Shown: positions 46,942 through 64,000, numbered from the stretch's first letter. The stretch: DNA of 64,000 nucleotides from Blastocatellia bacterium (GCA_963765495.1 CAVXWP010000003.1:262671-326670), one strand, 5' to 3'. Numbers and translations: made by a program. Notes: generated from the sequence alone by a model not told the origin.

Positions 46942-47017
46942 CGCTCGATGGATTGTAAGGCCTGAACCCTTCAGCAAGGGATTTGTAGAAACGAAATTGA
47001 ATGAAAGGCAGATCGGA

Positions 47018-47118
47018 ATAGGCCACGGATTCGACGGATTCGACGGATTCGACGGATTAGACCATATCAGGTTCAGATCCGCGAAAATCCGCCGCATCCG
47101 CGTCCGTCCCGGCCTATT
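47018..47118. repeat. Second copy of the 9-bp-repeat palindromic element, inverted
   Basis: aataggccacggattcgacggattcgacggattcgacggatt ... gttcagatccgcgaaaatccgccgcatccgcgt..ggcctatt. Confidence 0.72.
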
Positions 47119-47170
47119 TCTAATTACACTACTTTGGAGTTTCGTTTGTACTAATCTTGCGCATTTCGAT

Positions 47171-47902
47171 TTAGATTTTCTTCCAGACGAGATCGTTGTT
47201 TTCGCGGCGGTCGCGCATCTCGACAACGCGCCCGGCGGCGTCGCGGATAAAGACTTTTTCGCCGCGAATCGTGCCTTTGATGAAATATGTGTTTACATCG
47301 GCGGGTAATAACTCTTGCTTGTCTCTGCCCGTACGTTGCCCCATTAATTTTCCGTCCTCGATTGTGATTTTGTACGTTACGCCTTCGGTCAGTTTATACT
47401 CTCCTCTGAGAGCGTCATAAACCTTTGGGTCAACCTTTACTGATTGACGCTCGCTCGGGCGGACGGTGATCTGTTCGGCAACCAGCATCCACTGACCGTT
47501 GCGTTTGAAATAGGTGTCTGTGACGAGATAGATCGGGGCCAGCCGCTGCCCGAAAACAGTCTCTTCTTCGAGAGCCTGCCAGGATATGATTGCCGCATCC
47601 CGGTTGATGCGCGATTTCACATTAGCGACTTTTATCGAGCCTGAATAACCTTTCGGAAGAGGCGCGAGCGATTCCACGAGGTCTTTTTTTGTCAGTACAT
47701 TCCAGGTTTCATCCGTGTATATCACATCGTCGGCGACGTGCTTTTCCCATACCGCTTTGTCGCCTGCGGCCACGGCGTCCATCAGGGATTGAATTATGTG
47801 AACGATCTGCTTTTCGGTATCGGCATCCGAGCTTTCCTGTGCCGGGCAAACCGCTACGTTCAAGCCAAGGATCAACATCGCAATACAGATAAAATGTTTC
47901 AT
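47171..47902 (-). CDS. Secreted NTF2-like (DUF4440) protein with DUF3471-like C-terminus
   Basis: Signal peptide; DAVAAGDKAVW..ADD, TDTYFKRNGQW; VDPKVYDALRGEY. Confidence 0.78.
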   Translation of the reverse strand: MKHFICIAMLILGLNVAVCPAQESSDADTEKQIVHIIQSLMDAVAAGDKAVWEKHVADDVIYTDETWNVLTKKDLVESLAPLPKGYSGSIKVANVKSRINRDAAIISWQALEEETVFGQRLAPIYLVTDTYFKRNGQWMLVAEQITVRPSERQSVKVDPKVYDALRGEYKLTEGVTYKITIEDGKLMGQRTGRDKQELLPADVNTYFIKGTIRGEKVFIRDAAGRVVEMRDRRENNDLVWKKI

Positions 47903-48182
47903 GTGCCTCCTGCTTTTTGGAAACTATTCCCAACCATTCTTATCCCTAAAAATCGGCCCAGTACGCGCCGGTCTTACACATCTGATACCACTTCTCGGCG
48001 TCTTTGTCATTGTAGACCCCGAGCAACTTTATAATTTCGCGTGCGAATTACTGCTGCCGTCAGGTAAACTTGAGCAGCAATCGGCACCGACGCTACGAGG
48101 CGCGATTTTCTTATGCTGCCTCTATTGATTGAGCCGAAAGCGAGGTGTATCTCAGACTATCAAAGGACGAGTATAGGCTGCT

Positions 48183-48353
48183 ACCTTAGCAGAGATAGAT
48201 GAACGCAAGAGCCGTATCGTAGAACTGCGCTTCTTCGGCGGAATGAGCAACGAAGAGATCGCCGAAGTGCTCGAAATCTCGAAGATCACCGTGATCCGCG
48301 AGTGGAATAAAGCAAAGGCGTGGCTTTACCGCGAATTGAGCCACCGGCCATGA
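48183..48353 (+). pseudogene. 3' remnant of an ECF sigma factor (region 4; TIGR02999-like)
   Basis: [52 protein letters not shown]; in-frame stop just upstream, no start. Confidence 0.85.
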
Positions 48354-48372
48354 ATTACCGACCCCCTCGTTT

Positions 48373-48986
48373 ATGGACGCTGAACGCTGGACCAGAATAG
48401 ATCGCCTGCTTGATCAGGCTATGGAGCATCCACCTGAGAGACGCGCCGACTTCCTGGCAGCCGCCTGCGCGGGCGATGATCAGTTACGGCGCGAAGTCGA
48501 AACGCTGCTCGAAGCCCATTCGCAATCCGAATCTTTTCTCAGTATTCCGGCGTTCGATCTGGTTGCCCGGGTCTGGCCGGTGAGAGACAACCCTCGCTTG
48601 TCGGGAAACGACTCGAGCCTATCAGGTGCTCTCTCTGCTCGGCGCAGGCGGGATGGGTGAAGTCTATCTGGCGCGCGATAAACGGTTAAAGCGCAAACTG
48701 GCGCTCAAATTCTTGCCGCAGCAATTCACGCGAGACCCGGACCGCGTCCGGCGTTTCGAGCGCGAAGCTCGCGCCGCATCGGCGCTCAATCCTCCAAACA
48801 TCCTCACGATTTATGAGATAGGCGAGATGGCCGGAACCTATTTCATCGCCGCCGAATATGTGAAAGGCCAGCCCCTGCGCCAACTGATAAGGCGTGGCCC
48901 GCTCCGCACCAAAGAGACAATAGATATATGCTCGCAAGTGGCCGATGCTCTGGATGCGGCGCACGAAGCCGGGCTGGTCCATCGCG
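48373..48986 (+). pseudogene. Frameshifted, truncated Ser/Thr kinase
   Basis: MDAERWTRIDRLL..LRREVETLL, then in another frame LGAGGMGEVY..FEREARAASALN..GLVHR, ending before the D of HRD. Confidence 0.88.
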
Positions 48987-49259
48987 CGAGCGGTGTACAA
49001 TAAACCGCCGATTCTGATCTTCGATGAAGCGACCAGCGCCCTGGATACCGAGTCTGAGAAGGCCGTCAAAGAGAACATGGCTCAACTGCTGAAGGGTCGA
49101 ACCTCATTCGTCATCGCGCATCGCCTCAGCACTATTCGCGATGCCGACCTGATACTGGTCATCGAAAAAGGCAGGATCGTCGAGCAGGGGAATCACGAAG
49201 AGTTGATGGAACGGCAGGGACTCTATTACTACCTCAGCAGCCAGCAACTCGGTCTGTAA
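48979..49259 (+). pseudogene. 3' remnant of an ABC exporter ATPase (HlyB/MsbA-type)
   Basis: [41 protein letters not shown]. Confidence 0.88.
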
Positions 49260-49541
49260 AACCACAGGCTCTCTCGATAAAATCGCTTTGCGCTCCTGGT
49301 TTCAAAAGTTCAGGGCCGCTCAAAGCAGGCACTCATGCCCGGCTCATCTTTGCTGCTTTTCGTCACCTCAAATGTTGCTGCCTGCCTGATCATCTCGTAT
49401 ACTCTCGCGTGCTTAAACTCTCGTTTTATCAGAGTGAAAAGTTTTTTTGGTCTTAGCCTTATGAAACGCCCACGGGTTAATTGATTCAGGCTTTATGGGT
49501 GAAGCCTGGAAAATGGTACGAGATGGAAGGAGAATAAATCT

Positions 49542-50693
49542 ATGATGCAGATGAAGAACTTTTTCGTTCTCGGTCTTATTTTGTGCATGTGCCTGTCAGT
49601 CTTCGCACAGGATAGTTCCTACGATGGGCTCGACAATAATCTAAGCAACTTGTACCGGCTGTCTGGAGCGAAGACTTTTTCGATTAGCCCGGAGAACCTG
49701 ACGGGAGAAAAAGGCAAGGGCGGGATGGCAATTCAAGGTAATGCTTCAGACGCTGCGCGGGATTTAGGGCAAGGCTGGAAGATCAACCCTTTCATAATTA
49801 TTGAGCCGGGTAAAACCTTCACTTTAGCGGAGATCAACGGTCAGGGTGCCATTCAGCATATCTGGATGACTCCCACAGGGAACTGGCGTTTCTCGATCCT
49901 TAGAATCTACTGGGATGATGAAACGACGCCTTCGGTCGAGACACCGGCAGGCGATTTCTTCGCGATGGGCTGGGGCAAATACGCGCAGATATCCTCGCTG
50001 CCGATCTGCGTTAATCCGGGCAGTGCTTTTAACTCCTATTGGATGATGCCCTTTAGAAAGAGAGCGAAAATCACGATGGAGAACCTGGACGTGAGGTCGA
50101 TGAGGCTCTACTACCAGATAGATTACACTCTGACTCAAGTGCCAAAAGACGCCGCTTACTTTCATGCGCAGTTTCGCAGAATCAACCCTCTGCCCGAAAA
50201 AGAGGTGTACACCATAATAGATAACATAAAAGGCAAAGGGCATTACGTCGGGACTTATCTGGCGTGGGGAGTAAATAATAATGGATGGTGGGGGGAGGGC
50301 GAGATCAAATTCTACCTGGACGGTGATCAACAGTTTCCGACGATTTGCGGCACAGGGACAGAAGACTATTTCTGCGGGTCATACAACTTTGAGAATCAGG
50401 AGAAGAAGCAGTACCAGGAATTTACTACCCCCTACTCCGGGCTTGCGCAGGTAATCAGACCGGACGGGCTCTACCAGTCACAGCAGAGGTTCGGTTTGTA
50501 TCGATGGCATATAGCAGACCCCGTGCGATTTGAATCTGACTTGAGGGTTACTATTCAGGCTCTCGGATGGAAAAGCGGGGGCAGGTATCTTCCGCTTCGC
50601 GATGACATCGCTTCCGTAGCATACTGGTATCAGGTCGAGCCACACGCATCATTTCCAAAACTCCCGAATAAGGATCAACTGGAAGTGAACTGA
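49542..50693 (+). CDS. GH172 (DUF2961) glycoside hydrolase
   Basis: SISPEN.TGEKG.GG, WWGEGEIKFY.DGD, GTGTEDYF, YRWHI.DP. Confidence 0.9.
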   Translation: MMQMKNFFVLGLILCMCLSVFAQDSSYDGLDNNLSNLYRLSGAKTFSISPENLTGEKGKGGMAIQGNASDAARDLGQGWKINPFIIIEPGKTFTLAEINGQGAIQHIWMTPTGNWRFSILRIYWDDETTPSVETPAGDFFAMGWGKYAQISSLPICVNPGSAFNSYWMMPFRKRAKITMENLDVRSMRLYYQIDYTLTQVPKDAAYFHAQFRRINPLPEKEVYTIIDNIKGKGHYVGTYLAWGVNNNGWWGEGEIKFYLDGDQQFPTICGTGTEDYFCGSYNFENQEKKQYQEFTTPYSGLAQVIRPDGLYQSQQRFGLYRWHIADPVRFESDLRVTIQALGWKSGGRYLPLRDDIASVAYWYQVEPHASFPKLPNKDQLEVN

Positions 50694-50934
50694 AGATATG
50701 AGACAGCCACCATCTTTGCAAGAGCGAGGGTCGTCGGCCACAAGGAGATTCGATCCGCGAATGCTACAAATTATGTCGTTATGGATGTTCATAAACTGAT
50801 TACGGGAAAATTCTGTTAAGGCAAAGGGGCAGCCTGATCGCCCCTTACAGCGTATGCTAATTCCATCGTGCTATACTCCCGCCGTAATCATTACGGCCAG
50901 CCTCGGGCTGCTCATAAGGAGACCAGGAGAGAAT

Positions 50935-51795
50935 ATGACGCGAACAGCAATGTGTATCGTGGGCGCAATCGCCTTTACATTCCTGATGTCTTGCTCGGCC
51001 TACTCGCAGACCGTCAATATTTGGCCCGGCACAGCTCCGGGTTCCGAGAATTGGACCCAGAAGGAAAGAACTGCGGACAACACTCCTATTGGGACCGTAG
51101 TCTTTAACGTGGTAACACCGACATTGACGGCTTTCCTTCCAGAGCGAAGCAGGGCGACTGGAACCGGAGTCATCATCGCCCCTGGCGGCGCTTTCGTTGC
51201 GCTGGCCATAGATTTGGAAGGTAACGATGTTGCGCGCTGGCTTCAGGAAAGAGGCATCGCCGCCTTCGTACTCAAGTATCGGATTGTGGAAAAGCGCCAG
51301 GAAGGCATCCCTACGATAAACATGGACGAGGCTGGTAAATATGGCATTGCTGACGGCATTCAGGCCCTCAAGGTGGTTCGCCAGCATGCAGCCGAGTGGG
51401 GCCTGTCACCCGACAGAATCGGCTTCATGGGATTCTCAGCCGGGGCCATGGTTACAAGCGGGTCCCTGCTTCAGAGCGACCCGGCGTTGCGTCCGAACTT
51501 CGCTGCAATGATCTATGGTGGTCCGTTCGGCGTCATGCCGACTATTCCCGCAAAACTGCCGCCCATGTTTCTAGCCTGGGCGCAGGACGATACGTTGGCG
51601 CTTGAGCCCGTAGTCAAATTTTATGGCGCCCTAACATCAGCAGGTCACAAACCTGAGGTCCACATTTTTAGCGCCGGAGGCCATGGCTTCGGCATGCGGA
51701 AACAGGGCACCAGCAGCGACCACTGGAACGAAGCATTCTATTACTGGCTGGAAGGGCAAGGATTCGCCAGACGGGCAGGAATATCCGATCACTGA
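50935..51795 (+). CDS. Alpha/beta hydrolase (carbohydrate esterase-like)
   Basis: PGGAF, GFSAG nucleophile, GGHGFG; AGGAG RBS. Confidence 0.88.
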   Translation: MTRTAMCIVGAIAFTFLMSCSAYSQTVNIWPGTAPGSENWTQKERTADNTPIGTVVFNVVTPTLTAFLPERSRATGTGVIIAPGGAFVALAIDLEGNDVARWLQERGIAAFVLKYRIVEKRQEGIPTINMDEAGKYGIADGIQALKVVRQHAAEWGLSPDRIGFMGFSAGAMVTSGSLLQSDPALRPNFAAMIYGGPFGVMPTIPAKLPPMFLAWAQDDTLALEPVVKFYGALTSAGHKPEVHIFSAGGHGFGMRKQGTSSDHWNEAFYYWLEGQGFARRAGISDH

Positions 51796-51934
51796 CCGGC
51801 TTCGCGACTTTACGGAGCAGCTTACATCGTAGCGCACCCGGTGCGATACCCGTCATTTCATTGGGCACGAGCGCGGAAAGCGAGTTTTACCTATTGTTAA
51901 TATCCTCACTTTGGGAAAGCAGGAGGGAAATACG

Positions 51935-52489
51935 ATGAGATATATGATCCTGTTTATTGCGCTTATACTTTGTCTATCTCTCTCTCTGTTCCACGCGACG
52001 AGTGACACGCTTGCTGGCAGCCAGAATCAATCCACCAGCCAGGCAATCTCTCCTTGTGATATTGCAGCCTATGTCATAGACCGTGACCCAAACGGTCTGA
52101 ATGTGCGTGCCGGAGCGGGCAAGACTTATAAAACTATCGGGAATCTGCCAAATGGACAGGTAGATGGCATAGTCGTTCATATCACAGGCTTCCAGGGTGA
52201 CTGGGCCCGAATAGATAAAGCCGTAGAGGAGGGTGGGGATAATGAACGGACATTTTTTGAAGGGGATGGGTGGGTCTATGCTCCTCTGCTAGGCGTAGAG
52301 GGCATGAGAACGAGGCTATTTAAGGAGCAGACCGAAAAGAGCAATGTCGTGATCCTTATCCCGGCAGGAGACGACGGTGTGAGAGTGCGAGGGTGTCGAG
52401 GGAAATGGATGTATGTAGAATACAAGAAAGCGAAGGGCTGGGCAGCACCTGGAACACTATGTGCAAACTCGCTGACGACTTGTAGCTAA
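51935..52489 (+). CDS. Secreted SH3b-domain protein
   Basis: Signal peptide; D.DPNGLNVRAGAG, GWV, C-terminal CANSLTTCS. Confidence 0.72.
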   Translation: MRYMILFIALILCLSLSLFHATSDTLAGSQNQSTSQAISPCDIAAYVIDRDPNGLNVRAGAGKTYKTIGNLPNGQVDGIVVHITGFQGDWARIDKAVEEGGDNERTFFEGDGWVYAPLLGVEGMRTRLFKEQTEKSNVVILIPAGDDGVRVRGCRGKWMYVEYKKAKGWAAPGTLCANSLTTCS

Positions 52490-52577
52490 TAAGAGCGACA
52501 TGGGAAGAACCACCATCTAAGCCACTTGAAAAACCTGACTCTGTTTGCCGTGGATTGCTACAAACCGCCTGAAAAAG

Positions 52578-52606
52578 ATCAGGGCCACCTTTTGAGTGGC
52601 CCTGAT
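52578..52606. terminator. Perfect 11-bp hairpin terminator downstream of the tRNA fragment
   Basis: ATCAGGGCCAC-cttttga-GTGGCCCTGAT with A/T runs on both sides. Confidence 0.8.
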
Positions 52607-52621
52607 TTATTGAATCTAAAA

Positions 52622-52667
52622 GTGGAGCTAGTCGGGCTCGAACCGACGACCTCTTGAATGCCATTCA
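52622..52667 (-). tRNA. 3' half of tRNA-Ala(GGC), probable integration (att) site rather than a complete gene
   Basis: Minus strand TGAATGGCATTCAAGAGGTCGTCGGTTCGAGCCCGACTAGCTCCAC = anticodon arm, T-arm and acceptor 3' strand; D-arm and 5' acceptor strand absent. Confidence 0.85.
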
Positions 52668-53094
52668 TTTCACCAGCCGCCAATCTCAATGACAATTCAT
52701 TATGTTTAGTTAAGTTTAGGAGCAAGTTAAGCCATCAGCCAGCAGGTCAATATCACTGAATATCACCCAGCGTCTATAAAAATTTGTCACAAGATTGTCA
52801 CAAGCTTTTCTTATATGGGTATAACGTCAGTGGCAGATCAGAGTTCTTTAGTGATTACGAGACCGCATTCTACGCCAGCTCTCTTCGTGTGAACTTGGTA
52901 GCACTTGTTGAAAGATAATGCTCGGGGCGAGCCTGGGCCATCCGCTCGATTCCGCAAGTACCGCGTTCATTTGATAGAAGATCTTCGCAGCTTATCAGGC
53001 AAGTTCAACTTATCATCAATCAACACGTCGATAGAGATCTTCATCAGCCTTTGCACAAGCCAGCAAAACTGAAAGCTAGGGCTGGCCGGTCAAA

Positions 53095-54057
53095 TCACGT
53101 TCTGCGATTATCTAGCGGACTCTTGACCCCTCGACCTCCGCTGTTGAGTACGTGTGTATAAATCATTGTCGTGCTTACATCCTTATGACCGAGCAATTCT
53201 TGCACCGTTCTTATGTCATATCCGTCTTCTATCAGATGCGTCGCAAAACTATGTCTCAACGTATGGCAACTGGCTGGTTTCACAATCCCTGCTTTCTTAA
53301 CCGCTGCCGCAATTGCGCTCTGCAATCCTGTCTCTGAGTAATGATGCCTTCTTATCTTTCCTGAACGTGGATCAACAGATCGTCTTAATGATGGGAATAC
53401 ATATTGCCAACCCCACGACCGATTCGCTTTGGGATATTTTCTTTCAAGCGCGTATGGCAGATAAACCTCACCGAATCCCTCAGCTAAGTCGCGCGTATGT
53501 AGCCCTTTGATTCTTACCAGGTGGTTCTTCAACTCTTGCTTTATTGTCGCAGGCAGCATCGTAATTCGATCTTTACTCCCTTTGCCATCGCGGACAGTAA
53601 TCTGGTTGTAAGAGAAGTCAATATCCTTAACACGGAGTCTCAAGCATTCCAATAATCTCAAGCCTGCTCCGTATAGCAGACTCCCCATCAGCCAATGAAG
53701 ATCATTGAGTTGGTCAAGTACACAGTAGACTTCTTCTCGGGTTAAGACCACAGGCATCTTCCTGGGTTTTTTTGCTCGCTCAACATTATTTAGCCTGCCA
53801 AAGGGTTGTTTGAGAACTACCTTATATAGGAACAGGAGCGCAGACAATGCCTGATTCTGAGTCGAGGAAGCAATCTTCTTTTCCACAGCCAGATATGAAA
53901 GGAACTGCTCGACTTCTAGGTTGCCCATCTCTGATGGATTACGCTTACGATGAAAGAGTATGTATTCTTTGATCCAGAAAATGTAGGCACTTTCGGTCCT
54001 GATGCTGTAGTGCCTGAGGCGCATCAGGCGACGGGTCTCATCGAGTATTTGGGACAT
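53095..54057 (-). CDS. intI: Integron integrase (tyrosine recombinase)
   Basis: [33 protein letters not shown], integron-specific insert [36 protein letters not shown]. Confidence 0.97.
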
Positions 54058-54104
54058 AGGCAGGCTTTCCCATCTTCGGACAAGAAATCACCTGGGAAGT
54101 GGTC

Positions 54105-54134
54105 AAGATATATATCGAAATCTCCGTTTGTCAA
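54105..54134 (-). promoter_or_regulatory. Candidate sigma-70 promoter for intI
   Basis: Minus strand TTGACA-N18-TATCTT, about 50 bp upstream of the ATG. Confidence 0.5.
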
Positions 54135-54205
54135 CTTGAAAGAGGAGTGCACAGGGAGTAATATGCGCCTACCCAGGGAATATAGAAAGCGGCTCCATTC
54201 ATAAA

Positions 54206-54568
54206 ATGGGAATCTCTACGAGAGTACGCGCAGGTGCGAAAGGGACAAAGAAGCTAGTAAGGCAATATGGGGATAAACTGATCTGTGTCAGGTACAGGTA
54301 CGATGAGGCAAGCAAAAAGCGGTACAAAACGATAGAACTGATAATTGATGAAGTGGCTTGGGAGCGAAAGGCTCGGCGCTATAAGCCGCAACAGGTGGTG
54401 GGGGTGAGAGTTGGAATGGAGGAGCAAGAGCTACAAAAGAGGGTAAAGCAGGCAGGAGGGAGATGGAACAAGGAGGAGAGAGTATGGGAAATAAGGTATG
54501 ATCGGGCGGTTAGTATAGGGGTGAAGGATCGCATAGCCAGAGGAAAGTTTATGAATGGAAAAACCTGA
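54206..54568 (+). CDS. Small basic hypothetical protein between intI and attI
   Basis: 120 aa, K/R-rich; G.KGTKKLV..YGDKL.CVRYRYD and C-terminal VKQAGGRWN....VWE (DUF5710-like); no attC follows. Confidence 0.8.
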   Translation: MGISTRVRAGAKGTKKLVRQYGDKLICVRYRYDEASKKRYKTIELIIDEVAWERKARRYKPQQVVGVRVGMEEQELQKRVKQAGGRWNKEERVWEIRYDRAVSIGVKDRIARGKFMNGKT

Positions 54569-54768
54569 TGGTTTATGACAGAACAAACTTGTTTCTCTAT
54601 GCAGAAACTTGTTTACGATATGACAAACTTTCTGGCGGGCGAGTTTGAAATCAGATGGGAAGGAGCGACAGAAGGGAAAAGGAAGTTTCTGTATAAAAGA
54701 ACTTTGAGGTTTATGATAAGAATAACTTGTTCGTCTATGAGCAAACTTGTTTATGAATGGAAAAACTC
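54547..54768. repeat. Array of eight palindromic GTTT-N10-AAAC(TT) sites in two phased blocks
   Basis: Sites start at 54547, 54571, 54591, 54611 and 54685, 54709, 54729, 54749. Confidence 0.85.
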
Positions 54769-54769
54769 G

Positions 54770-54796
54770 GCTACCGGGTCTATTTCAAAGTTAGGC
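54770..54796 (+). other. Probable attI recombination site
   Basis: GTTAGGC core at 54790-54796 with no upstream attC left arm; first cassette follows. Confidence 0.75.
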
Positions 54797-55152
54797 GTCA
54801 GATCATCGATGAGAGGGAGACGACTCATCAAGCAATGATACGAAAACATGCTCAGGTAAGTCATCGCGAGGACAGCCACTTGCTCGCTTCTCTCTTCTCT
54901 TGTTCCTTCATATGATGTTTCTTCCAAACGATCTATTCAGCATCTGGCTCAATGATAATGCTGCCTCGAAAAGATACCTTCGCAGGGCAATTGCCTGTTG
55001 AGGCAAGGGGTAGAGAAACCTGATTGGGAAGGACGAACTTGCACATCAAGCTGCTTCCTTGGCAATGACAGGAAAACCTGTCTCAGAAAGTGAGACTGAA
55101 AATAGGAGGATCAGGGTCAGCAAAGCGCAAGAAATGAAACAGGCAAGGGGCC
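54791..55152 (+). ncRNA. Gene-less cassette, family A copy 1 (candidate structured RNA)
   Basis: No credible ORF; homologous to 56437-56818 and 58437-58878; nested complementarity. Confidence 0.5.
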
Positions 55153-55237
55153 GCCTAACCGCTCAATCAACCGGACCCGCATACCAACTTCTCGTTATCC
55201 CTTCGACCACAGCGGGCCGGTTATCTCGGTGTTAGGC
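55153..55237 (+). repeat. attC site 1
   Basis: GCCTAAC...GTTAGGC imperfect palindrome, 85 bp. Confidence 0.92.
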
Positions 55238-55374
55238 TCTCGCTTTGGCTAGGAAAACATTAATAGGGTTAAGATGATTCAAACCCTTCCCTTCAGCCCT
55301 CCTCAAAATGTCATTTCAAATTATCAATCACGAATTCTCGCAATTACACTACTTCTGCTCTATACTGCTTCACC

Positions 55375-55683
55375 ATGAAAAAGCATCGAAAGGATCCCAA
55401 ATTGTCCGGACCTCCTGACCTTAATTATTTTGCTGAATGGGATGATGGTGATGGTCGTGCTGGAGTCAATGCCGGGCCAAGCGGGTTGACTTGGTGGTAT
55501 CGACCTAAGGGTCCGGGAGGTAGATTTGGTGAGGTTGGTTCTGATCAAACCTTTGAAGAATTTCTTGGCCACGGACCGAAAGGTGGAGCCGTGCCAGAAA
55601 AAGTGATAGGTGAGCTAGAATCAATCAAAAGGCGCAGGGAATTACAAATGCACAAAGGCGAAGGAGTTCAAGTACAGAGCTAA
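55375..55683 (+). CDS. Cassette-encoded hypothetical protein
   Basis: 102-aa ORF between attC1 and attC2. Confidence 0.6.
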   Translation: MKKHRKDPKLSGPPDLNYFAEWDDGDGRAGVNAGPSGLTWWYRPKGPGGRFGEVGSDQTFEEFLGHGPKGGAVPEKVIGELESIKRRRELQMHKGEGVQVQS

Positions 55684-55828
55684 TCCTGGAACAGAAACGA
55701 ATGGAGACCGACCCTGCGTCCATCGAAGAAACCCGAGAGATCGAGAGATATCTTAACTGGTTCAATAAGAGAGAAAATGAACCAAGCTGAGAGGTTGAAA
55801 GTAATGGATGGCCTAAGAAACGGAAACA

Positions 55829-55914
55829 GCCTAACTGCTCATTCCAGCGGACGCGCATGCCAACTTCTCGATTGCATCGGAGGCCACAGCGCGCCGCTGA
55901 ACTCGGCGTTAGGC
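55829..55914 (+). repeat. attC site 2
   Basis: GCCTAACTGCTCATTCCAGCGGACGCGC...GCGCGCCGCTGAACTCGGCGTTAGGC. Confidence 0.92.
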
Positions 55915-56092
55915 TCGCGGGGAAAGTACCTGACCAACAGCAAGGAATTGGAGGTAGAAATACTTGATCAAACAAGATCATAGTAGCGACAAGATACTTT
56001 CACCAAGCAAGGAGATACGCTTGGGGCCGCGCCTCCCGATATGCCTTGATTGAATTGCAAAGAAAGCCGAGCGCGGCCAAAGACAAAGGCGA
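55915..56092 (+). ncRNA. Gene-less cassette, family B copy 1
   Basis: No start-to-stop ORF; GGCCGCGC...GCGCGGCC hairpin; homologous to the next cassette. Confidence 0.45.
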
Positions 56093-56178
56093 GCCTAACA
56101 TGGGCATTCAACGGACCCGCATACCAGCGTCTCGTTATCCCTTCGCCCACAGCGGGCCGCTGATTCCCGGCGTTAGGC
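56093..56178 (+). repeat. attC site 3
   Basis: GCCTAAC...GTTAGGC, 86 bp. Confidence 0.92.
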
Positions 56179-56357
56179 TCGCGGGAAAGTACCTGACCAA
56201 CAGCAACGAATTGGATGCAAAGGTATTTCGGACAACAAGACCATGATGACGAAAGAGGTCAAAACACCAAGCAAGGAGTTAAGGTTGGGGCCGCGCCAAT
56301 CGAGGCAGACTGATTTGCTCGAAATAAGCGCCGAGCGCGGCCAAAGACAAAGGCGGC
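56179..56357 (+). ncRNA. Gene-less cassette, family B copy 2
   Basis: Shares gaaagtacctgaccaacagcaa and the ggccgcgc/gcgcggccaaagacaaaggcg blocks. Confidence 0.45.
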
Positions 56358-56442
56358 GCCTAACAGGTCGATCAACCGGACCCGCATGCCAACCTCTCGT
56401 TATCCCTTTGCCCACGGCGGGCCGGTTATCTCCGCGTTAGGC
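56358..56442 (+). repeat. attC site 4
   Basis: GCCTAAC...GTTAGGC, 85 bp. Confidence 0.92.
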
Positions 56443-56818
56443 GTCAACCTCAGAAGCGAAACGACTCATAAAGCGATGATGCGAAAACATGTTCAGGTAG
56501 TCATCGCCAGGACAATGCGCTTGCTCGCTTCTCATTCCACTCTCTTCGCATCGCTTATCTCTGTTCCTTTCTCTGATACTGCTTTCTCCCGAATCAGTCT
56601 GTTCAGCATTGCTCAATGACAATGCTGCCTCGAAAAGATACCTTCGCATGGCAATTGCCTGTTGAGGTAAGCGACAGCACAAACCTGATTGGAAAAGACG
56701 AACTTGGCACATCAAGCTGCTTCCTAAGCAATAGCAGGAAAACCTATCTCAGAAAGTGAGGCTGAGAATTGGAGGATCAGGGCCAGCAAAGCTCAAGTAA
56801 TGAAACAGGCAAGGAGCT
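56443..56818 (+). ncRNA. Gene-less cassette, family A copy 2
   Basis: Shares aatgctgcctcgaaaagataccttcgca, caattgcctgttgagg, tctcagaaagtgag with copy 1. Confidence 0.5.
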
Positions 56819-56903
56819 GCCTAACCGCTCAATCAACCGGACCCGCATTCCAACTTCTCGTTATCCCTTCGACCACAGCGGGCCGGTTATCTCGTCGTTA
56901 GGC
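56819..56903 (+). repeat. attC site 5
   Basis: Nearly identical to attC1. Confidence 0.92.
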
Positions 56904-57048
56904 TCGTGGGGAAAAATGCTGACCAAAAGCCAGGACAAAGTAGCGATGATAAAACCGGAACAACGAACGATCTCGACAAGGGGCCGCGCCTCCCGATATG
57001 CCTTGATTGAATTGCCCAGAAAGCCGAGCGCGGCCAACGACAAAGCGA
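56904..57048 (+). ncRNA. Gene-less cassette, family B copy 3 (shorter)
   Basis: ggggccgcgcctcccgatatgccttgattgaattgc..agaaagccgagcgcggccaa nearly identical to copy 1. Confidence 0.45.
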
Positions 57049-57134
57049 GCCTAACCACCGGTTCGACCGGACCCGCATGCCACCACTTCATTATCCCTCT
57101 GCTACCAGCGGGCCGCTCAACCGGGGCGTTAGGC
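57049..57134 (+). repeat. attC site 6
   Basis: GCCTAAC...GTTAGGC, 86 bp. Confidence 0.92.
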
Positions 57135-57251
57135 TCTCGCAGTTACCTCAAATTCATTGGTATGGTTACTCCAATCTGATTACTCATTTTCATTTGAATA
57201 TCTTTGCCTCCCTACATAGAATCAGTTCGCTTTCGCAGATTTTCTTAGTGA

Positions 57252-58283
57252 GTGGTTATTACGTTTTGGAAAGGAGTTTTATCGTTTATGGTACGGCGTC
57301 CTATTGTCTTATGGGACTTGCGACTGGGTGTATGGGGGGTGCGTAACTACTACTCCACCTTGGAGCAACGAGCCATCACGGGAGCCATCATATCTCCCGG
57401 TTACATTGCTATGATCTTTGCCGCGGCGGGCATGGCGACTGCCGGACTGCTTCTAAACAGTTCAGCAGCAATAATTGGGTCTATGTGTGTTGCCCCATTT
57501 ATGGCCCCTTCACGAGCCGTGTGTATAGGCATAATTTTTCGGGAACCGCGCATCGTCTTGAAGGGTCTACTTAAGCAACTCGCTGGGTTGCTTTTCCTTG
57601 GGAGTGGTGTCGCAACAATTCTTACACTACTTATTCAAGGCACATTCGGTGGTCTTTCTATAACGCCAGAAGTTTTGTTGCGGGCCATGCCTACAACACA
57701 AGACGTGCTACTCAATGCTTTAATAGCCCTCTCGGCTGGTGCGGCGGCAACTTTGGCTCTTACTGCTGAACCACATATTGTAGAAACCCCTTGGGGTCAG
57801 GTTCTTGATGCAGTAATTGGGGTCGAAATCGCCGTTTCGCTGTTACCCCCGGCGGCAGTGGTAGGTATCGGCCTTGCATTTCGTAGGGCAGATATTGCTA
57901 ATCATGCTTTACTCCTTATGCTCTTAAATGTTCTTGGGCTTGACATAATAGGTAGTGGGCTAATTCTTGTACTGCGAGGAATCCGTAGAAGATATCTTGA
58001 TCTGGAAAAAGCGATTCGTGATTCAGTAGCTGTAACACTTGACATTGTTCCTGGATTCATTGACATGGGCAGTACAATAGACGTGACGCTTTTGAGCCCC
58101 TCGGAGACCCGCATAAATGTAATTGTGCGTCGGCGTTTTGGAGGGAAAGTTCCTGAGACACTAGCCCATACTATTGCAATAAACGTGACTACGGAAACCG
58201 GCTGCCATAGTGATGTCACTGTTGAAGTGATTCCACTACTCACGCACTCAGAGTTAGGACTATCCTTTAACAAAGAGGAATAA
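57252..58283 (+). CDS. Cassette-encoded DUF389-family membrane protein
   Basis: AT.GLLLNSSAAIIGSMCVAPFMAP, IGV.IAVSLLPPAAVVGIGL; start uncertain (ATG 57288 possible). Confidence 0.85.
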   Translation: MVITFWKGVLSFMVRRPIVLWDLRLGVWGVRNYYSTLEQRAITGAIISPGYIAMIFAAAGMATAGLLLNSSAAIIGSMCVAPFMAPSRAVCIGIIFREPRIVLKGLLKQLAGLLFLGSGVATILTLLIQGTFGGLSITPEVLLRAMPTTQDVLLNALIALSAGAAATLALTAEPHIVETPWGQVLDAVIGVEIAVSLLPPAAVVGIGLAFRRADIANHALLLMLLNVLGLDIIGSGLILVLRGIRRRYLDLEKAIRDSVAVTLDIVPGFIDMGSTIDVTLLSPSETRINVIVRRRFGGKVPETLAHTIAINVTTETGCHSDVTVEVIPLLTHSELGLSFNKEE

Positions 58284-58357
58284 GTAGTGGAAGGCCAATT
58301 CCGTGAGGAGACACTATAGCCAACAACCAGTCAGAGACATAAGGATTCAAGAACTAA

Positions 58358-58442
58358 GCCTAACTGCTCATTCCAGCGGACGCGCTTGCCAACCGCTCGT
58401 GTTCCACTGGTTACCGGCGCGCCGCTGAATTCGTCGTTAGGC
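58358..58442 (+). repeat. attC site 7
   Basis: GCCTAAC...GTTAGGC, 85 bp. Confidence 0.92.
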
Positions 58443-58878
58443 GTCAGATCACCGACGAAAGGGAGACGACTCAGTTTGCCTTGCTGTTGAAACCTGTCCA
58501 GGCAAGTCATCGCCAGGACCCCTACTTGCTCGATTCTCTTGCCTCTTTATCCCATACTACTCTGCTGTGTCTCTCATCCCTGCTCCTTCATCTGACACTT
58601 CTTTCTCCCAAAGCAGTCTTTCAGCATTGCTCATATAAACCTGTCTGGCGAAGAAGCCTGTTCAGCCGATTGCCTGTTGAGACAAGCATCAGAGAGGCGA
58701 GTTTGGAAAAGAGGAAGTAGGCAGATCAAAAAGCTTCCCCGACGAAAGAGAGCAACACCTGTCGCACGAGAGAGGAAATGACCTGTGAGGAAGAAGAGAA
58801 ACTGTGCAGAAACGAGAGATAAGAATAGGAGGGTTATGATCAGGAAAGCTCAAGAAGGATGAATCGGCGAAGGAAGCC
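58443..58878 (+). ncRNA. Gene-less cassette, family A copy 3 (diverged)
   Basis: gtcagatca..gggagacgactca, aagtcatcgc.aggac, acttgctcg, ttcagcattgctca, attgcctgttgag shared with copies 1 and 2. Confidence 0.5.
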
Positions 58879-58963
58879 GCCTAACTGCTCATTCCAGCGG
58901 ACGCGCTTTCCAACTACTCGCGTTCCACCAGCTACCGGCGCGCCGCTGAACTCGTCGTTAGGC
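58879..58963 (+). repeat. attC site 8
   Basis: GCCTAAC...GTTAGGC, 85 bp. Confidence 0.92.
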
Positions 58964-58993
58964 AGACTGTCGAGAGATGCTATAATTGCAAAC

Positions 58994-59438
58994 GTGAATC
59001 TAAATCGGCTTCTTTTCAAAATTCTTTTGATTGAGATTGCTCTCTCCTTCTCTACGCTTTGGTTTTGTTCGTCTCATGATTTGCCAGACCGTGCTTTGAT
59101 CCTTTACTTGCAAAAGCAGCCTCAGATCAGGCAGTTTGAAATTCTTAGTCGAATTGATCATCCTATATTAAAGACTACGAAGCCCTTGCTCTGGGTGTTG
59201 ACAATGAAAGACGGATTTATCGAATATCGTGTCAGGATTTCTACTCGACAGGCCGATTTAGAATTACATCTATAAGCTGCGGAAGAAAGAGGGAATTTGG
59301 GAAATCCTTGAGCAGAGATGTCATACAATTCAAATGATTGCAGAATTAGAAAAGGGTAAAATTTGCGGTCCGGTGTGTGATATTGTTGTATCGGACAAGA
59401 ACGGCAAGAAAGTAGGTATCAAAATGAGCAACGGGTGA
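58994..59438 (+). pseudogene. Probable frameshifted cassette gene (unknown exported protein)
   Basis: VNLNRLLFKILLIEIALS..LELHL* overlaps a second frame NYIYKLRKKEGIWEIL..KMSNG* that ends just before attC9. Confidence 0.45.
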
Positions 59439-59461
59439 ATTGAAATAAAAATCGAGGTTCT

Positions 59462-59546
59462 GCCTAACTGCTCATTCCAGCGGACGCGCTTTCCACCATT
59501 TCGTTATCCCTCTGCTACCGGCGCGCCGCTGAACTCGTCGTTAGGC
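59462..59546 (+). repeat. attC site 9
   Basis: GCCTAAC...GTTAGGC, 85 bp. Confidence 0.92.
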
Positions 59547-59685
59547 TCGCTCGGTTGCCCGAAAATTCTTAATTCTATATTTAGGCTGAATACTTGATTT
59601 CACCTGACAACCTGGGTAGGTCAATTGAATAGCTGCCCTATTTTCTGTATCCTCTACAGCCTCAATATTAATTAAGGAGGCGTTG

Positions 59686-60412
59686 ATGAAATTAGGGAAG
59701 ATTCTGGCAGTTCTGGTCGTCACTGCTGCAATTGCCGTTGCAGCTTATTTTGGACTCAGACCGTACTTCCAAGAGCAGAATCAAGTGAAGCAGGATCAAC
59801 AACAGCAGGAACAGGATCGTGCCAAACAGGATAAACAACAACAAGAACAGGATCAGGCGAAGCAGAAGCAGCAACAACTGGAACAAGATCGGGAAAAGCA
59901 GAAGCAGACGGTTGCAGATATTAGAAACACTGGCACTGCCATGTTTAGCTGGCTCACAGATCAGGTAGGTGACAGGGCCAGATCCCCCAGGGATTTCCCC
60001 CATACCCGTGAGCCTGGCAGTTAACAGCCCCGACAGCCTGGACTTTCAAGCAGGACGGCCAAGGAGCGTGCTTGTGACTCATCTTGTCGCGCAAGGACAG
60101 GCCAAAGAGGTGGATCTCAAAGATCACGCGCCGATTACTTTGGATGACCTGAAGAAATTGCTCGTGCCTCAGTACTTACAAAACATTCCGGAGAAAGACG
60201 GCTGGGGGCATCCCTATGAATACTATTTGAAAGTTGGGCAACGCGTGTTAGACCCGCAGGTCATGTTCATCCGCAGCCCAGGCCGCGACGGAAAGTATGA
60301 GAGTTCGCGCTATTCGGTAGCTGGGTTTCCACCAGACAGCTTCGACGAAGATATTGTATGGACAGACGGGTTCTTTGCCCGATGGCCGGAAGGCAGCACA
60401 CCGGGTCATTAG
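59686..60412 (+). pseudogene. Frameshifted GspG/pseudopilin-like membrane protein with Gln-rich repeats
   Basis: AAGGAGG RBS, TM helix, QKQTVADIRNTGTAM; second frame P.KDGWGHPYEY..IRSPGRDG; AGGT duplication at 59963-59970 breaks the frame. Confidence 0.72.
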
Positions 60413-60431
60413 TGATTGGTATGAAGGGGCC

Positions 60432-60523
60432 AACTGACAACGTGTTCGACCGGGCGGAGGCAGCGAGTTCATCCGGCTTCGGCCATAGCCGTCGCCCGCG
60501 CCCGGTTAACACGAGCATTAAGC
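60432..60523 (+). repeat. Degenerate attC of a different sequence type (site 10)
   Basis: AACTGAC-AACGTGTTCGACCGGGCG...CGCCCGGTTAACACGAGC-ATTAAGC; inner arms pair, both core heptamers mutated. Confidence 0.62.
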
Positions 60524-60676
60524 GCACGCGAGGGTTGGTCGGTGAGAATGAACAATACTGTTGGCCAAGAAGACAGAAGGAGACCTCTCTACTCAAAGTC
60601 CTGCTAAAAGGCAAAGTCAGCTGGCGCGGCTCGAACGAAGGCAATGCATCTGTGACGCACTCTCAAGAAGAAGCGC

Positions 60677-60761
60677 GCCTAACTGGGGCATTCAACGGAC
60701 CCGCATGCCAACTATTCATTATCCCTTCGCCCACGGCGGGCCGCTGATGCCTGCGTTAGGC
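60677..60761 (+). repeat. attC site 11
   Basis: GCCTAAC...GTTAGGC, 85 bp; preceded by a 150-bp gene-less body. Confidence 0.92.
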
Positions 60762-60794
60762 CTTACCGGCAACCGTCTATGCTAATATCTCACT

Positions 60795-61019
60795 ATGAAT
60801 TACAAAGATCGGATCACCATTGAGCCAGACAAGCGTGGGGGAAAACCCTGCATTAGAGGGATGCGAATCACCGTCTATGATGTACTTTCATATTTAGCGG
60901 CTGGAATGACTGAGCAAGAAATTCTTAATGATTTTCCTTATCTGACAAAAGAAGACATCATTGCTTGTCTCAGCTATGCTGCTGACCGTGAGCATCAGCA
61001 GATGGTGATTCAAGCGTGA
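60795..61019 (+). CDS. DUF433 antitoxin
   Basis: RITIEPDKRGGKPCIRGMRITVYDVL.YLA.GM..EIL.DFP.L..EDI.ACL.YA. Confidence 0.93.
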   Translation: MNYKDRITIEPDKRGGKPCIRGMRITVYDVLSYLAAGMTEQEILNDFPYLTKEDIIACLSYAADREHQQMVIQA

Positions 61020-61347
61020 AACTACTATTTGATCAGAACCTTTCTCCGAGACTGGTTCGACGGCTTGCCGATCTATATCCAGATTCAAGTCACGTTTATC
61101 TTATCGGATTAGATGCGGCTCCAGATCTTGTAATTTGGCAATATGCACAAGACAATGATTTTATAATTGTGACGAGGGATGCCGATTTCAGTGACTTGAA
61201 TGTGCTATTGGGGTATCCGCGAAAGTGAGATGGATCAGGCGTGGCAACTGCACAACAAGAGAGATTGAAAGTATACTTCGTACTAACTATGAGGTTGTAG
61301 AATCGCTCGCGAAAGATAGTTCCGTTGGGATTCTCACTCTATTCTGA
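61016..61347 (+). pseudogene. DUF5615 PIN-domain toxin, frameshifted
   Basis: MKLLFDQNLSP..IVTRDADF..GYP then shifted KVRWIRRGNCTTREIE..GILTLF*; consistent with a 1-nt deletion near 61219. Confidence 0.85.
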
Positions 61348-61372
61348 ATAGAAATTGCAGCCTTGAGACGCA

Positions 61373-61457
61373 GCCTAACTGCTCATTCCAGCGGACGCGC
61401 ATTCCACCTTCTCGTGTTCCATCTGCTACCAGCGCGCCGCTGAACTCGTCGTTAGAC
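61373..61457 (+). repeat. attC site 12
   Basis: GCCTAAC...GTTAGAC, 85 bp. Confidence 0.9.
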
Positions 61458-61609
61458 CCTCGGTTGCTCGCTGTGGATCACCACAGTGAGACGATGTGGA
61501 TTCTTCACTGGATAATTTCAACTTTCCGCGTATCTTGATTAAGGCTCATTTCAGTCTTTAAGAAAGGGATTTTAAGGCTGGCTTCCAGCCGATTTGAGGT
61601 TGTAGGTTT

Positions 61610-62192
61610 ATGAAAGAATGGTTTCTATTTATTGTGATATTCTTCCTCATTGGGAATTCTTCTGCTATAAAGGCACAGAAGCGTAAATATCTGAGAATCA
61701 GAGAAAGACCTCTTGTTTGGTTTGACCTTGATTGCGCAACAAAAACTGCCTACTCTAAGCTCAAACTAGATCGGCTTGTTAAGCCCTCATGAAACAGGTT
61801 GATTCTGACATGGGGAAATGGGGAGATCGTGCTTTTGCATTTGACCTAAATGGTGATGGAGACAAAGAAGTTTTTGTTCTTCTCGATTGCTCTGGTCTTG
61901 GAAACTGTAATTGGGGAATTTTCAGTACCAAACCTGCGCGTTGGCTAGAATTATCAATGGCGAACATATTTGGGTTCATAGACGAAATGGAAATTGGTCT
62001 CGACTGACCGTAGCAAGTGACATGAATGTCTCGGAGAGTTTACTGCGTACATACAGATTTAAGAATGGAAAATACAGGAGATTTGGAAGTGACTATTTGG
62101 AAAGTGCATACAAAGGTAATGAAGTTGAGAATTTGTATACAGTGAAACCAACCTGTGACCGACACCGGATACGTCAAAAGGATAGAAAATAA
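61610..62192 (+). pseudogene. Cassette gene for a secreted protein, broken into three frames
   Basis: Signal peptide MKEWFLFIVIFFLIG; DLNGDGDKEVFV..CSGLGNCNW; YRFKNGKYRR in overlapping successive frames. Confidence 0.62.
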
Positions 62193-62295
62193 TGAACAAA
62201 CCAATCGGAGATCGCTCTATGAAAGTAAGGGAGGGGGGACGGGCATTCTCAAGAGGTGTTTATTTTAGGGGCAGGATGCTAACCAAGGCAATTGG

Positions 62296-63334
62296 GGCTT
62301 TGTTGCGCAATTCGAGATGAAGATAGACTTCACCCAGACTTCGACCTCTTTTAGAATGCTACTGTGTCGGGCATCCCTAACTCGCTCATCCGATTCATCG
62401 CCATGCACTTGATCCTTGCCTCCGTTATTTGTGTCTCCATCTTCCTACTGCTCATTCGCTCTCCTAATATCCCCTTTAGCCTGCCCATCTGTGTCTCTAC
62501 CAAGCTCCTCTTGTGATACCCACTCTCTTTCTTCCACTCCTTCTCTCCTTTCTCTGCCTTCTCTCTTATCGCCAGGTTTCTTTCCCCCATATAATAATAC
62601 TTGCTCTCGACTGCTCCCTTTCGCGGCGGGATCAATGGCTTCGCTCCCTTCTTATAGATCGCCTTGTGACACTGGTTTGTATCATATGCTCCATCCCCAT
62701 ATATCCGACCTACTTCCCCTTCCGTTTCCTCTATCAATCGAGGCATTACTCGCGGGTCAACAACTCCCTTGTCGGTCAACTCTACGGCTGTTATCTCCCA
62801 CGTCTCTGTATCTACTGCTATGTGTAACTTCCTCCATTCTCGTCGTTTATCCTTCCCGTGTGTGCGAACTTTCCACTCCCCTTCTCCATAAATCTTAACT
62901 CCTGTTGAGTCTATTACAAGGTCCGCTATTGGCTTGCTTGTATCGCGCTTCAACCTTATCTCTAGCCCTGGGGCTCGCCTTGATACTCTACTGTAATCTG
63001 CAACGGGCAACTCTACTCCCATCAGCTTGAATAATGAGCAGACGAATCCTTGAGTCTGGCGAAGCGGCAGATGGAAGACGGCCTTGATCGAGAGCATTGT
63101 TATGATAGCAGTGTCAGAATATCTCAATGGAGCGCCGGGGCGTGTTTGAGGAGAGCGGTGTAGCCACTGATCAAGGACATCTTGAGAGAGCCAGACTGTT
63201 AGACTACCACGATTACGAAGAGAGGAGTTATACTGTTTCCAGTTACGGGTGCGATAAGTGGGTTTGTTTTTCTTGGTCATAAAGAGATTATACAAACCCT
63301 CGCGCACCTGTTGCCATATTTACGCAACAAAGCC
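62296..63334 (-). mobile_element. IS5-family (IS903 group) insertion sequence
   Basis: TIRs GGCTTTGTTGCGCAATT / ATTTACGCAACAAAGCC flank the transposase; no target duplication visible. Confidence 0.9.
62351..63307 (-). CDS. IS5-family (IS903-like) transposase
   Basis: YR.RNW..YN.SL..RGSLT.W, IDSTGVK.YGEGEW, WRKLH, GDGAYD, YHKRSLVET; start probably about 63280. Confidence 0.93.
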   Translation of the reverse strand: MREGLYNLFMTKKNKPTYRTRNWKQYNSSLRNRGSLTVWLSQDVLDQWLHRSPQTRPGAPLRYSDTAIITMLSIKAVFHLPLRQTQGFVCSLFKLMGVELPVADYSRVSRRAPGLEIRLKRDTSKPIADLVIDSTGVKIYGEGEWKVRTHGKDKRREWRKLHIAVDTETWEITAVELTDKGVVDPRVMPRLIEETEGEVGRIYGDGAYDTNQCHKAIYKKGAKPLIPPRKGAVESKYYYMGERNLAIREKAEKGEKEWKKESGYHKRSLVETQMGRLKGILGERMSSRKMETQITEARIKCMAMNRMSELGMPDTVAF

Positions 63335-63342
63335 TGGATCGG

Positions 63343-63427
63343 GCCTAACTGCTCATTCCAGCGGACGCGCATGCCAACTTCTCATTATCCCTTGGCTACC
63401 GGCGCGCCGCTGAATTCGTCGTTAGGC
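63343..63427 (+). repeat. attC site 13
   Basis: GCCTAAC...GTTAGGC, 85 bp. Confidence 0.92.
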
Positions 63428-63486
63428 GTCAGAAAGGTTGCTTACTCATAAAAGCCATGTGAGGCCCAGACGTGCAGCACTATCGC

Positions 63487-64000
63487 CTAGCAGCCTAGTT
63501 CGCGGCACCACCGCTTCCTGACGCTTCCGGCTTCAGCATCCCCGTGCATCCCGATCCAGCGCACAAAGGCTTCGAACCAACCGGTGCTCGTCGTTTCCTT
63601 CGGATACATCCCAAAGCCATGGCCACCCTGTTCATAAAGATGGAATTCGACAGGGCGCTTTGCTGCCTTCCAGCTATCGATGAGCCCATAGCCACCGTTC
63701 GCGAAGAAAGGATCGTCGGCAGCAAGGGCGATGAACAATGGCGGAGCGTGGGCCGGCACGGTGACCGGCGCGAGAGGACCGTAGATGATGCCGATGAAGG
63801 CTGGCTTCGCATCCTCGCCCGCGAGCGTGGTCGCCATTGTCAGCATCGCGCCAGCGGAAAAGCCGACCATGCCGATCCGATGGGGATCAACGTGCCACTC
63901 GGCAGAACGCTTGGGGATCAGTGCAAACGCCGCGCGGGCGTCGGCGATCTGCGGAGCGAGACCGGCAGTCGCAGGTCTCAGGTCGGGGCGCGGCGGCCGC
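63487..64000 (-). CDS. Alpha/beta hydrolase, C-terminal part (runs off window)
   Basis: WHVDPHRIGMVGFSAG, GGHGFG; homologous to 50935-51795; possible 1-nt frameshift near the C-terminus (HGD vs HGMLKP). Confidence 0.82.
   Translation of the reverse strand, partial: RPPRPDLRPATAGLAPQIADARAAFALIPKRSAEWHVDPHRIGMVGFSAGAMLTMATTLAGEDAKPAFIGIIYGPLAPVTVPAHAPPLFIALAADDPFFANGGYGLIDSWKAAKRPVEFHLYEQGGHGFGMYPKETTSTGWFEAFVRWIGMHGDAEAGSVRKRWCRELGC

Follow-up and report, generated by a model that had tools for sequence, protein, structure and literature searches.

A conserved small-protein gene and an array of phased palindromes beside attI in a Blastocatellia integron and at related loci

An integron of a Blastocatellia bacterium carries, between its integrase gene (intI) and its attI site, a gene for a 120-aa basic protein followed by a row of palindromic sites spaced at about 20 bp, and this arrangement recurs behind homologs of the gene. 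The arrangement is associated with intI, attI and attC sites, and the array is absent where an integron lacks the gene. In textbooks an integron is a device of three parts, namely an integrase, an attI site and a promoter. The platform described here has, like the canonical one (intI, Pc, attI), a true IntI, a GTTRRRY core bordering the first cassette and an attC array, but it differs in having a conserved protein gene and four to eight phased palindromes between intI and attI. The preferred reading, to which a probability of roughly 0.5 is given, is that the 120-aa protein binds the attI-adjacent palindromes and has an accessory or architectural function linked to attI. The module fits no named family, and a function is proposed here from its sequence and its anatomy. 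All coordinates refer to the window, that is, the whole stretch of 64,000 nucleotides that was analysed (Table 1).

The locus is a true integron, with integrase, attI and attC array all present. Its integrase scores 475.7 bits against TIGR02249 (cut-off 265) and is thus an integron-type tyrosine recombinase. The 12 attC sites are about 86 nt long, run from GCCTAAC to GTTAGGC and have a 21-pair consensus structure. Where the platform meets the first cassette, the GTTAGGC at 54790 is of GTTRRRY type and is the core of the predicted attI; the 18 nt flanking it recur in conserved form in the attI regions of two further integrons of this genome, and the simple site is also conserved with sites behind homologs of the 120-aa protein. 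The 148-bp gap between intI and the divergent ORF holds two back-to-back matches to promoter consensus (10/12 and 9/12 positions; four such sites against 1.7 expected in shuffles), which are called promoter-like here, as consensus matches are not evidence of function. An initial reading of the sequence, made without database searches (the sequence-only reading), had described a divergent, basic 120-aa ORF without an attC between intI and the first GTTAGGC. This description is borne out: the protein has a pI of 10.4 and 32 lysines and arginines, and a covariance model built from the 12 attC sites, which are therefore its own training set, places all of them at or beyond 55153 on the plus strand and finds no site in 40000-55152.

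Table 1. Features of the integron platform, in window coordinates
Feature	Coordinates	Strand	Remarks
intI, integron integrase, 320 aa	53095..54057	-	TIGR02249; Pfam Phage_integrase and Phage_int_SAM_4
Back-to-back promoter-like sites	54105..54164		minus 54134-54105, towards intI; plus 54136-54164, towards the ORF; consensus scan only
Inverted 12-nt copy of the interior of sites 1 and 8	54194..54205	-	directly before the ORF start codon
120-aa basic ORF	54206..54568	+	unnamed large family; tail overlaps site 1
Array block 1, four 18-bp sites	54547..54628	+	starts 54547, 54571, 54591, 54611
Inter-block spacer, 56 bp	54629..54684	+
Array block 2, four 18-bp sites	54685..54766	+	starts 54685, 54709, 54729, 54749
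attI simple site (predicted)	54778..54796	+	left box-like GTCTATT 54778-54784; core GTTAGGC 54790-54796
Cassette array, 12 attC sites	54797..64000	+	first attC 55153-55240; runs to contig end

Exact copies of GTTT-N10-AAAC occur five times in the 64-kb window, namely as the four sites of block 1 and the last site of block 2 (54749), whereas shuffled sequences hold a mean of 0.81 (sd 0.92) and none of 100 shuffles reaches five. If one mismatch is allowed, the other three sites of block 2 are added, each with a single mismatch in its end tetramers, and the array then accounts for eight of the 36 matches in the window, all eight inside 220 bp. The eight sites had been read initially as two blocks 138 bp apart, each spaced 24-20-20 bp, and all of these coordinates hold. 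The blocks are 85-nt direct repeats of 72% identity, and Tandem Repeats Finder assigns the array a period of 20. The same reading held that ends and spacing are kept while the middles vary; the spacing is indeed kept, but the N10 middles are only partly variable, as sites 1 and 8 are identical and ATGA is common to several. The 12-nt inverted copy in front of the ORF, which the sequence-only reading does not mention, is 100% complementary to 54548-54559 and 54750-54761.

The 120-aa protein belongs to a large family. A word-indexed search returned 48 relatives among 51 candidates, all of them unnamed or 'hypothetical' and none with a Pfam domain, and in the family alignment seven residues around a CVRYRYD core are invariant. 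Cluster representatives, searched exhaustively, yielded 2084 matches at E <= 0.001, 829 of them at E <= 1e-10. Species-representative genomes (one per species) gave 502 candidate stretches, of which 498 encode a relative; these loci are distributed over Acidobacteriota, Chloroflexota, Rokubacteria/Methylomirabilota, Desulfobacterota, Nitrospirota, some Proteobacteria and others. The locus analyses below used the best 80 of the 498 relatives, many of which are kin, so that counts among them are not independent.

The exact motif of the window is not conserved behind these homologs, but the arrangement is: the gene is followed by 18-bp palindromes (7-4-7) at exactly 20-bp spacing, then by an attI-like simple site and then by attC sites. 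Over the 130 bp that follow residue 110 in the 80 unique loci, autocorrelation peaks sharply at lag 20, with a value of 0.336 where 3147 control windows give 0.258 (z 10.4), and it peaks again at lag 40 (z 6.0). Lag 20 scores highest in 28 loci and lag 40 in six; among controls, 8.6% score highest at a lag of 19-21. Similarly, 7-4-7 palindromes are 7.7-fold enriched (1.98 against 0.26 per 140 bp), and 57% of loci hold at least two of them, compared with 3% of 2842 control windows. Enrichment is confined to even spacers, so that the palindromes are truly of even length. Counts of 6-mer recurrence and 18-mer similarity discriminated weakly, and the autocorrelation and palindrome tests were used instead.

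All sites of a locus have one half-site in common, and half-sites differ between lineages. For instance, GCATCCA and GTTTCTA are each found in seven loci, GCATCTA in four and GTGTCTA in three, with others besides, and the window has GTTTATG. All of them keep G1, T4 and mostly A7 (pattern G..T..A). This divergence is what a single diverging protein family with co-diverging sites would give. Many columns of the protein alignment associate with half-site class, an association that is confounded by kinship; for positions 111-113 it is trivial, since their codons are themselves the first site.

The simple site that follows the array is of GTCTAAT-N4-GTTRRRY type, and the sequence past GTT is variable, as expected at a recombination junction. 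A loose version of this pattern is present in 30 of 57 loci, as opposed to 5% of controls. Crude rules could call both features in 32 loci. In 12 of these, representing at least five half-site classes, 29-32 bp separate the G of GTT from the centre of the last palindrome in front of it, and other distances cluster near 40-42 and 50-52. In the window, measured by hand, the centre of the last site (54749) lies 32 bp before the core G at 54790. Five loci from different taxa (L028, L037, L056, L078 and L092) share the same nine bases after the attI-like GTT (GTTGAACTA), which may be a common first-cassette start or an 'empty' attI right half.

The surroundings of the homologs were characterized for intI by tblastn with the IntI of the window, within 4 kb of the gene in the best 80 loci. 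An intI lies directly upstream in 33 (31 divergent, two of these partial, and two on the same strand), elsewhere in the locus in two, and is absent within 4 kb in 45, three of which have too little upstream DNA to judge. The upstream genes at intI-less loci (46 ORFs) are ordinary, such as those for a sugar kinase, RlmN, MnmG, phosphofructokinase, ABC transporters and ScpA. Where intI is on the same strand, it is 24 bp away in one locus (L074, 3038-4330) and 179 bp away in the other (L031, 2880-4318); the order intI, gene, array, attI is retained in both despite the inverted intI, and co-transcription of intI with the small gene is thus possible. Additionally, the attC model, which is narrow (effective sequence number 1.7), has 65 matches downstream of the homologs on the strand of the gene and one upstream. 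At least one match is found in 27 of the 44 loci with at least 1.5 kb of downstream sequence (15 of 25 without intI and 12 of 19 with it), a rate that is a lower bound, with misses uninformative, because the model was built from one genome. In 27 of the 80 loci the contig breaks within 700 bp after the gene, as would be expected on the border of an array rich in repeats.

The association was also followed in 61 genomes of the window's class, that is, its own genome and 60 relatives, of which 15 have the gene and 39 have IntI at E <= 1e-60. All 11 relatives with both genes have a copy within 1.3 kb of intI (12 of 12 with the window's own genome), and in one of the 11 the intI-adjacent copy is frameshifted. 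The module is therefore beside intI in 12 of the 39 intI-carrying genomes, own genome included, or roughly a third. Of the genomes whose module has no nearby intI, five were searched whole; in three of them an intI is present elsewhere, while the other two lack one at E <= 1e-40. Each of the five has from 1 to 11 family matches, fragments included, and the two intI-less ones keep an intact copy, which fits a role independent of IntI. One complete 9.5-Mb chromosome without intI at E <= 1e-40 (G061; L142, L143) has 11 family matches, mostly fragments or frameshifted, and in it the C-terminal domain occurs alone within a 383-aa open frame, near the start of a 365-aa ORF called there.

Homologs are thus strongly associated with intI. 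The sequence-only reading had proposed the ORF as a fourth component of the platform. That proposal survives in part: a conserved module does lie between intI and attI with attC arrays downstream, but it is optional and lineage-specific (12/39), and it also heads arrays without intI (45/80). Because the homologs are tied to intI, attI and attC while integrons without the ORF have no array, 'extra platform component' is a fair description. The intI-less arrays that start with the gene, palindromes and an attI-like site are orphan platforms and not bare attC clusters.

These features suggest how the module might work. The 120-aa protein would be a sequence-specific DNA binder, most likely dimeric on the 18-bp palindromes, given that it is very basic, that its gene ends within the first of several palindromes of one sequence and that the sites co-diverge. 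The predicted binding sites start inside the gene's own end and run up to the attI simple site. As a 20-bp repeat is about two helical turns, bound dimers would lie on one face of the DNA, and the centre of the last site, three turns (~30-32 bp) before the crossover G, would tie the row to attI. Bound dimers would then form a short protein-DNA filament abutting attI, and the module would help or gate IntI-mediated recombination of attI with attC. It could also throttle read-through, since it lies between the sole plus-strand promoter-like site and the first cassette. That the binder is the 120-aa protein rather than IntI, that it acts as a dimer and that it affects recombination or transcription is what we infer from this anatomy. 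Points against the reading are the 45 of 80 loci with no intI within 4 kb (three of them not assessable), the two intI-less genomes that keep an intact copy, the many integrons of closely related IntI that work in its absence, and the window's own sites, which as palindromes are poor, with 5-6 of 7 arm pairs. A more far-reaching version can be put forward tentatively: a large, undescribed 'four-component' class of integrons, in which a self-encoded protein polymerises on the palindromes, three helical turns from the crossover, and is required for attI x attC recombination or determines its direction, and in which orphan platforms are served in trans by a distant integrase.

The main rival, which might instead be a second function of the same protein, is a transcriptional gate, with the array serving as a roadblock or operator that sets read-through into the cassettes, perhaps with autoregulation, and having no direct role in recombination. 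The gene is oriented like the cassettes, it is preceded by the sole plus-strand promoter-like site, and a scan of the region found no terminator-like site between it and attI. The inverted copy of the site at its start codon also speaks for such a gate, as does the persistence of the module at arrays without nearby intI and in two of the five genomes above. However, a roadblock has no need of the 29-32 bp distance from last site to G that is seen in 12 of 32 loci and in the window, and the module is co-inherited with particular IntI lineages. Operator copies upstream of the gene are not family-wide either: the best 14-mer match there scores 10.68 on average, against 10.41 in controls, a small shift, and an autoregulatory operator was rejected as a family trait on this basis. 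A purely transcriptional role is therefore considered somewhat unlikely, while being the strongest of the alternatives.

A second alternative is that the palindromes are additional sites for IntI itself, forming an extended attI, and that the small protein is otherwise employed, for example as a chaperone, or is the product of an unrelated first gene. Such an arrangement would resemble class 1 attI1, which has extra protein-site DNA immediately upstream of its simple site, in the form of direct repeats bound by IntI1. In several loci the inner TCTAAT of the palindrome equals that of the left box GTCTAAT, and in the window GTTTATG and the left box GTCTATT are alike at 5 of 7 positions. In contrast, the half-site GTGTCTA of other lineages differs from their left box (AGAAT type). 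The geometry is also different, as the inverted half-sites abut with a 4-bp centre, compared with the 6-8-bp overlap given for tyrosine-recombinase core sites in PMC2095811.

The array goes with the gene rather than with intI, which also counts against this alternative. The window's genome has three intI genes, in three integrons of one attC type. In the other two, on contigs C6 (L101) and C17 (L102), about 180 bp separate the intI start codon from a homologous attI, and these platforms have neither the ORF nor the array. Together with 18 platforms in relatives they make 20 ORF-less platforms, with IntI up to 69% identical to that of the window, and none has an array: their highest lag-20 score is 0.391, and none of the 20 reaches 0.45, a value reached by 16% of 74 gene-bearing platforms (Mann-Whitney p 0.014 for lag 20 with and without the gene, a weak statistic). 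Conversely, loci without intI still carry arrays, including those in genomes where no intI was found. In a tree of 29 IntI with the module and 22 without it, the trait changes five times, against 16.7 times in shuffles, none of 500 of which was as low. The ORF-less clade of 11 that contains both ORF-less IntI of the window's genome is starred, whereas the IntI of the window pairs with the module-bearing IntI of L074 (support 89). Sampling in this tree is uneven, with ORF-less IntI all from relatives of the window and module-bearing ones from many phyla, and its starred branches would be compatible with a single origin of the module. An extended attI bound by IntI is judged improbable. A prediction of the complex between IntI and the 120-aa protein (score 0.00, mark 0.32) gave no evidence either way.

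It is less probable again that the array acts as RNA or single-stranded DNA, with hairpins of 7-bp stem and 4-nt loop either on the lagging strand or in the leader of the RNA that carries the cassettes. The arms do co-vary between lineages, staying complementary, and the array stretch of the window folds somewhat better than shuffled sequence (z -2.18; 5 of 200 shuffles as good). Mere stems, however, need neither one sequence per locus nor the kept G1, T4 and A7; the stems in the window would be weak, with 4-6 arm pairs; and Rfam at E <= 1 gave nothing relevant over 52400-55400, including in and near the array.

Searches with the 120-aa protein returned no named family, with no match above the cut-off in Pfam and none in NCBIfam or PDB sequences. 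PHROGs gave three weak rows over two unnamed families (best E 0.006), and the family profile reached a best E of 0.15 against PDB sequences. The AlphaFold model is confident (pLDDT 85.2) and has two small alpha/beta domains, at about residues 1-48 and 64-105. Foldseek with the whole model found nothing in PDB at E <= 0.001 (best VIA Z 3.6), the N-terminal domain alone gave a best VIA Z of 3.3 and Foldseek E values of at least 1.3, and a viral fold library had no match at Foldseek E <= 0.001. With these values, and with Pfam, NCBIfam, PHROG and PDB sequences likewise without a match, a relation to Xis/Cox/MerR-like winged-helix proteins was not found.

The C-terminus had been likened in the sequence-only reading to DUF5710/HARP-like nucleic-acid-binding modules, with structure prediction and Foldseek named as the check. 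Neither domain matches a solved fold. Several hints converge on DUF5710 for residues ~64-105, all of them below threshold. Pfam DUF5710 (PF18974) scores 11.8 bits (E 0.2) against the protein, where the cut-off is 26.5, and matches 10 of 46 relatives at E <= 0.1 (best E 0.0024), all under the cut-off. Ranks 1-4 in the viral fold library are DUF5710 proteins (E 0.08-0.24, probability up to 0.97), and a DUF5710 cluster is at rank 26 in the protein atlas (score 0.81). A search with PF18974 in the window's genome and 60 relatives gave nothing at E <= 0.001, with controls silent too. Membership would in any case explain little, because DUF5710 is a 44-residue domain of no known function.

Although the two-block, 20-bp array resembles iterons and the protein has a weak match to RepA_C of plasmid Rep proteins (E 0.064), a remnant or module of a plasmid Rep system, partition centromere or transposon end that landed beside attI is highly improbable: the RepA_C score of 13.9 bits falls short of the cut-off of 26 and does not place the protein in a Rep family, the position between intI and attI and before attC arrays is conserved over many phyla, and the family has one partial match in 72,556 plasmid records and one in viral contigs. 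These two matches comprise the N-terminal domain alone, on Trichlorobacter lovleyi plasmid pIAE1 (L121, 5962-6279), with tyrosine recombinase genes about 4-5 kb to either side, and on a viral contig (L144, 3001-3144), and the N-terminal domain thus also exists outside integrons.

The preferred reading, in which the 120-aa protein coats the palindromes in the service of attI, has parallels among other site-specific recombination systems. Small basic accessory proteins act at phased sites beside the core in several of these, namely lambda Xis, P2 Cox and L5 gp36, and ArgR/PepA act at cer/psi. The integron integrase has no arm-binding domain, and it recombines a double-stranded site with a folded single strand. 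The likeness to Xis, Cox, gp36 and ArgR/PepA is one of anatomy, a small basic protein with several phased sites flanking a core, and by the same analogy the module would occupy the relative position of the arm-type or accessory sites of other tyrosine-recombinase systems. P2 Cox has a double role in recombination and transcription, and the 120-aa protein may have one as well. The differences are that the 120-aa protein has no sequence or fold match to any of these proteins and that its putative sites are palindromes at 20-bp spacing.

Regulators of integron platforms listed in the accessible part of one review are the host proteins LexA, CRP, H-NS, IHF and FIS together with short leader ORFs, and no integron-encoded DNA-binding protein is named in that part (PMC8876359). 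Another review states that the chromosomal IntIA of Vibrio probably needs accessory proteins, as yet unidentified, for attI x attC recombination, and treats the poor recombination of attI by chromosomal integrases in hosts other than their own as an open question (PMC8946536). Clusters of attC sites without an integrase are known as CALIN (Cury et al. 2016, PMC4889954), and the excerpt of that paper makes no mention of a module at their head. The 45 of 80 loci that are cassette-type arrays without a nearby intI are like CALIN in this respect, but they differ in starting with the gene, palindromes and an attI-like simple site. In the same excerpt, IntegronFinder counts any CDS between intI and the last attC as a cassette gene (PMC4889954), a rule by which the 120-aa gene would be mislabelled. 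No description of the gene or the array was found in full-text literature, a search whose scope excludes subscription journals and supplements, where a prior description is possible.

If the preferred reading is correct, these elements would have a new working part, an integron-encoded DNA-binding module set in register with the crossover. Integrase-less arrays would be read differently, and annotation pipelines would need correcting for this gene. Two proteins and 250 bp of DNA would then suffice for a direct test of the accessory-factor question. On the tentative four-component version, the module would moreover be an accessory factor of the sort that chromosomal integrases are suspected of needing, and many 'CALIN' arrays would be live insertion platforms.

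Several further features of the window and its genome were recorded. At 52619-52665 on the minus strand, about 430 bp past the 3' end of intI, is a stretch with the look of a tRNA 3' half, comprising T-arm and acceptor end, which may be a remnant of the attachment site of an integrated element; ARAGORN found no tRNA in the window, nor did Rfam at E <= 1. A lookup of sequencing runs returned no RNA run with words of the window and one soil-metagenome DNA run with a small share of them. The first cassette (54797-55240) is duplicated as the fifth (56446-56906), in segments of 87-95% identity without a convincing ORF, and a third, more diverged copy lies near 58460-58850. Similarly, the first cassette of the ORF-less integron in L101 (~2707-3060) is repeated at ~3057-3410. 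Finally, one cassette of the window contains a 36-nt tandem repeat in four copies (59770-59898), which would be glutamine-rich if translated.
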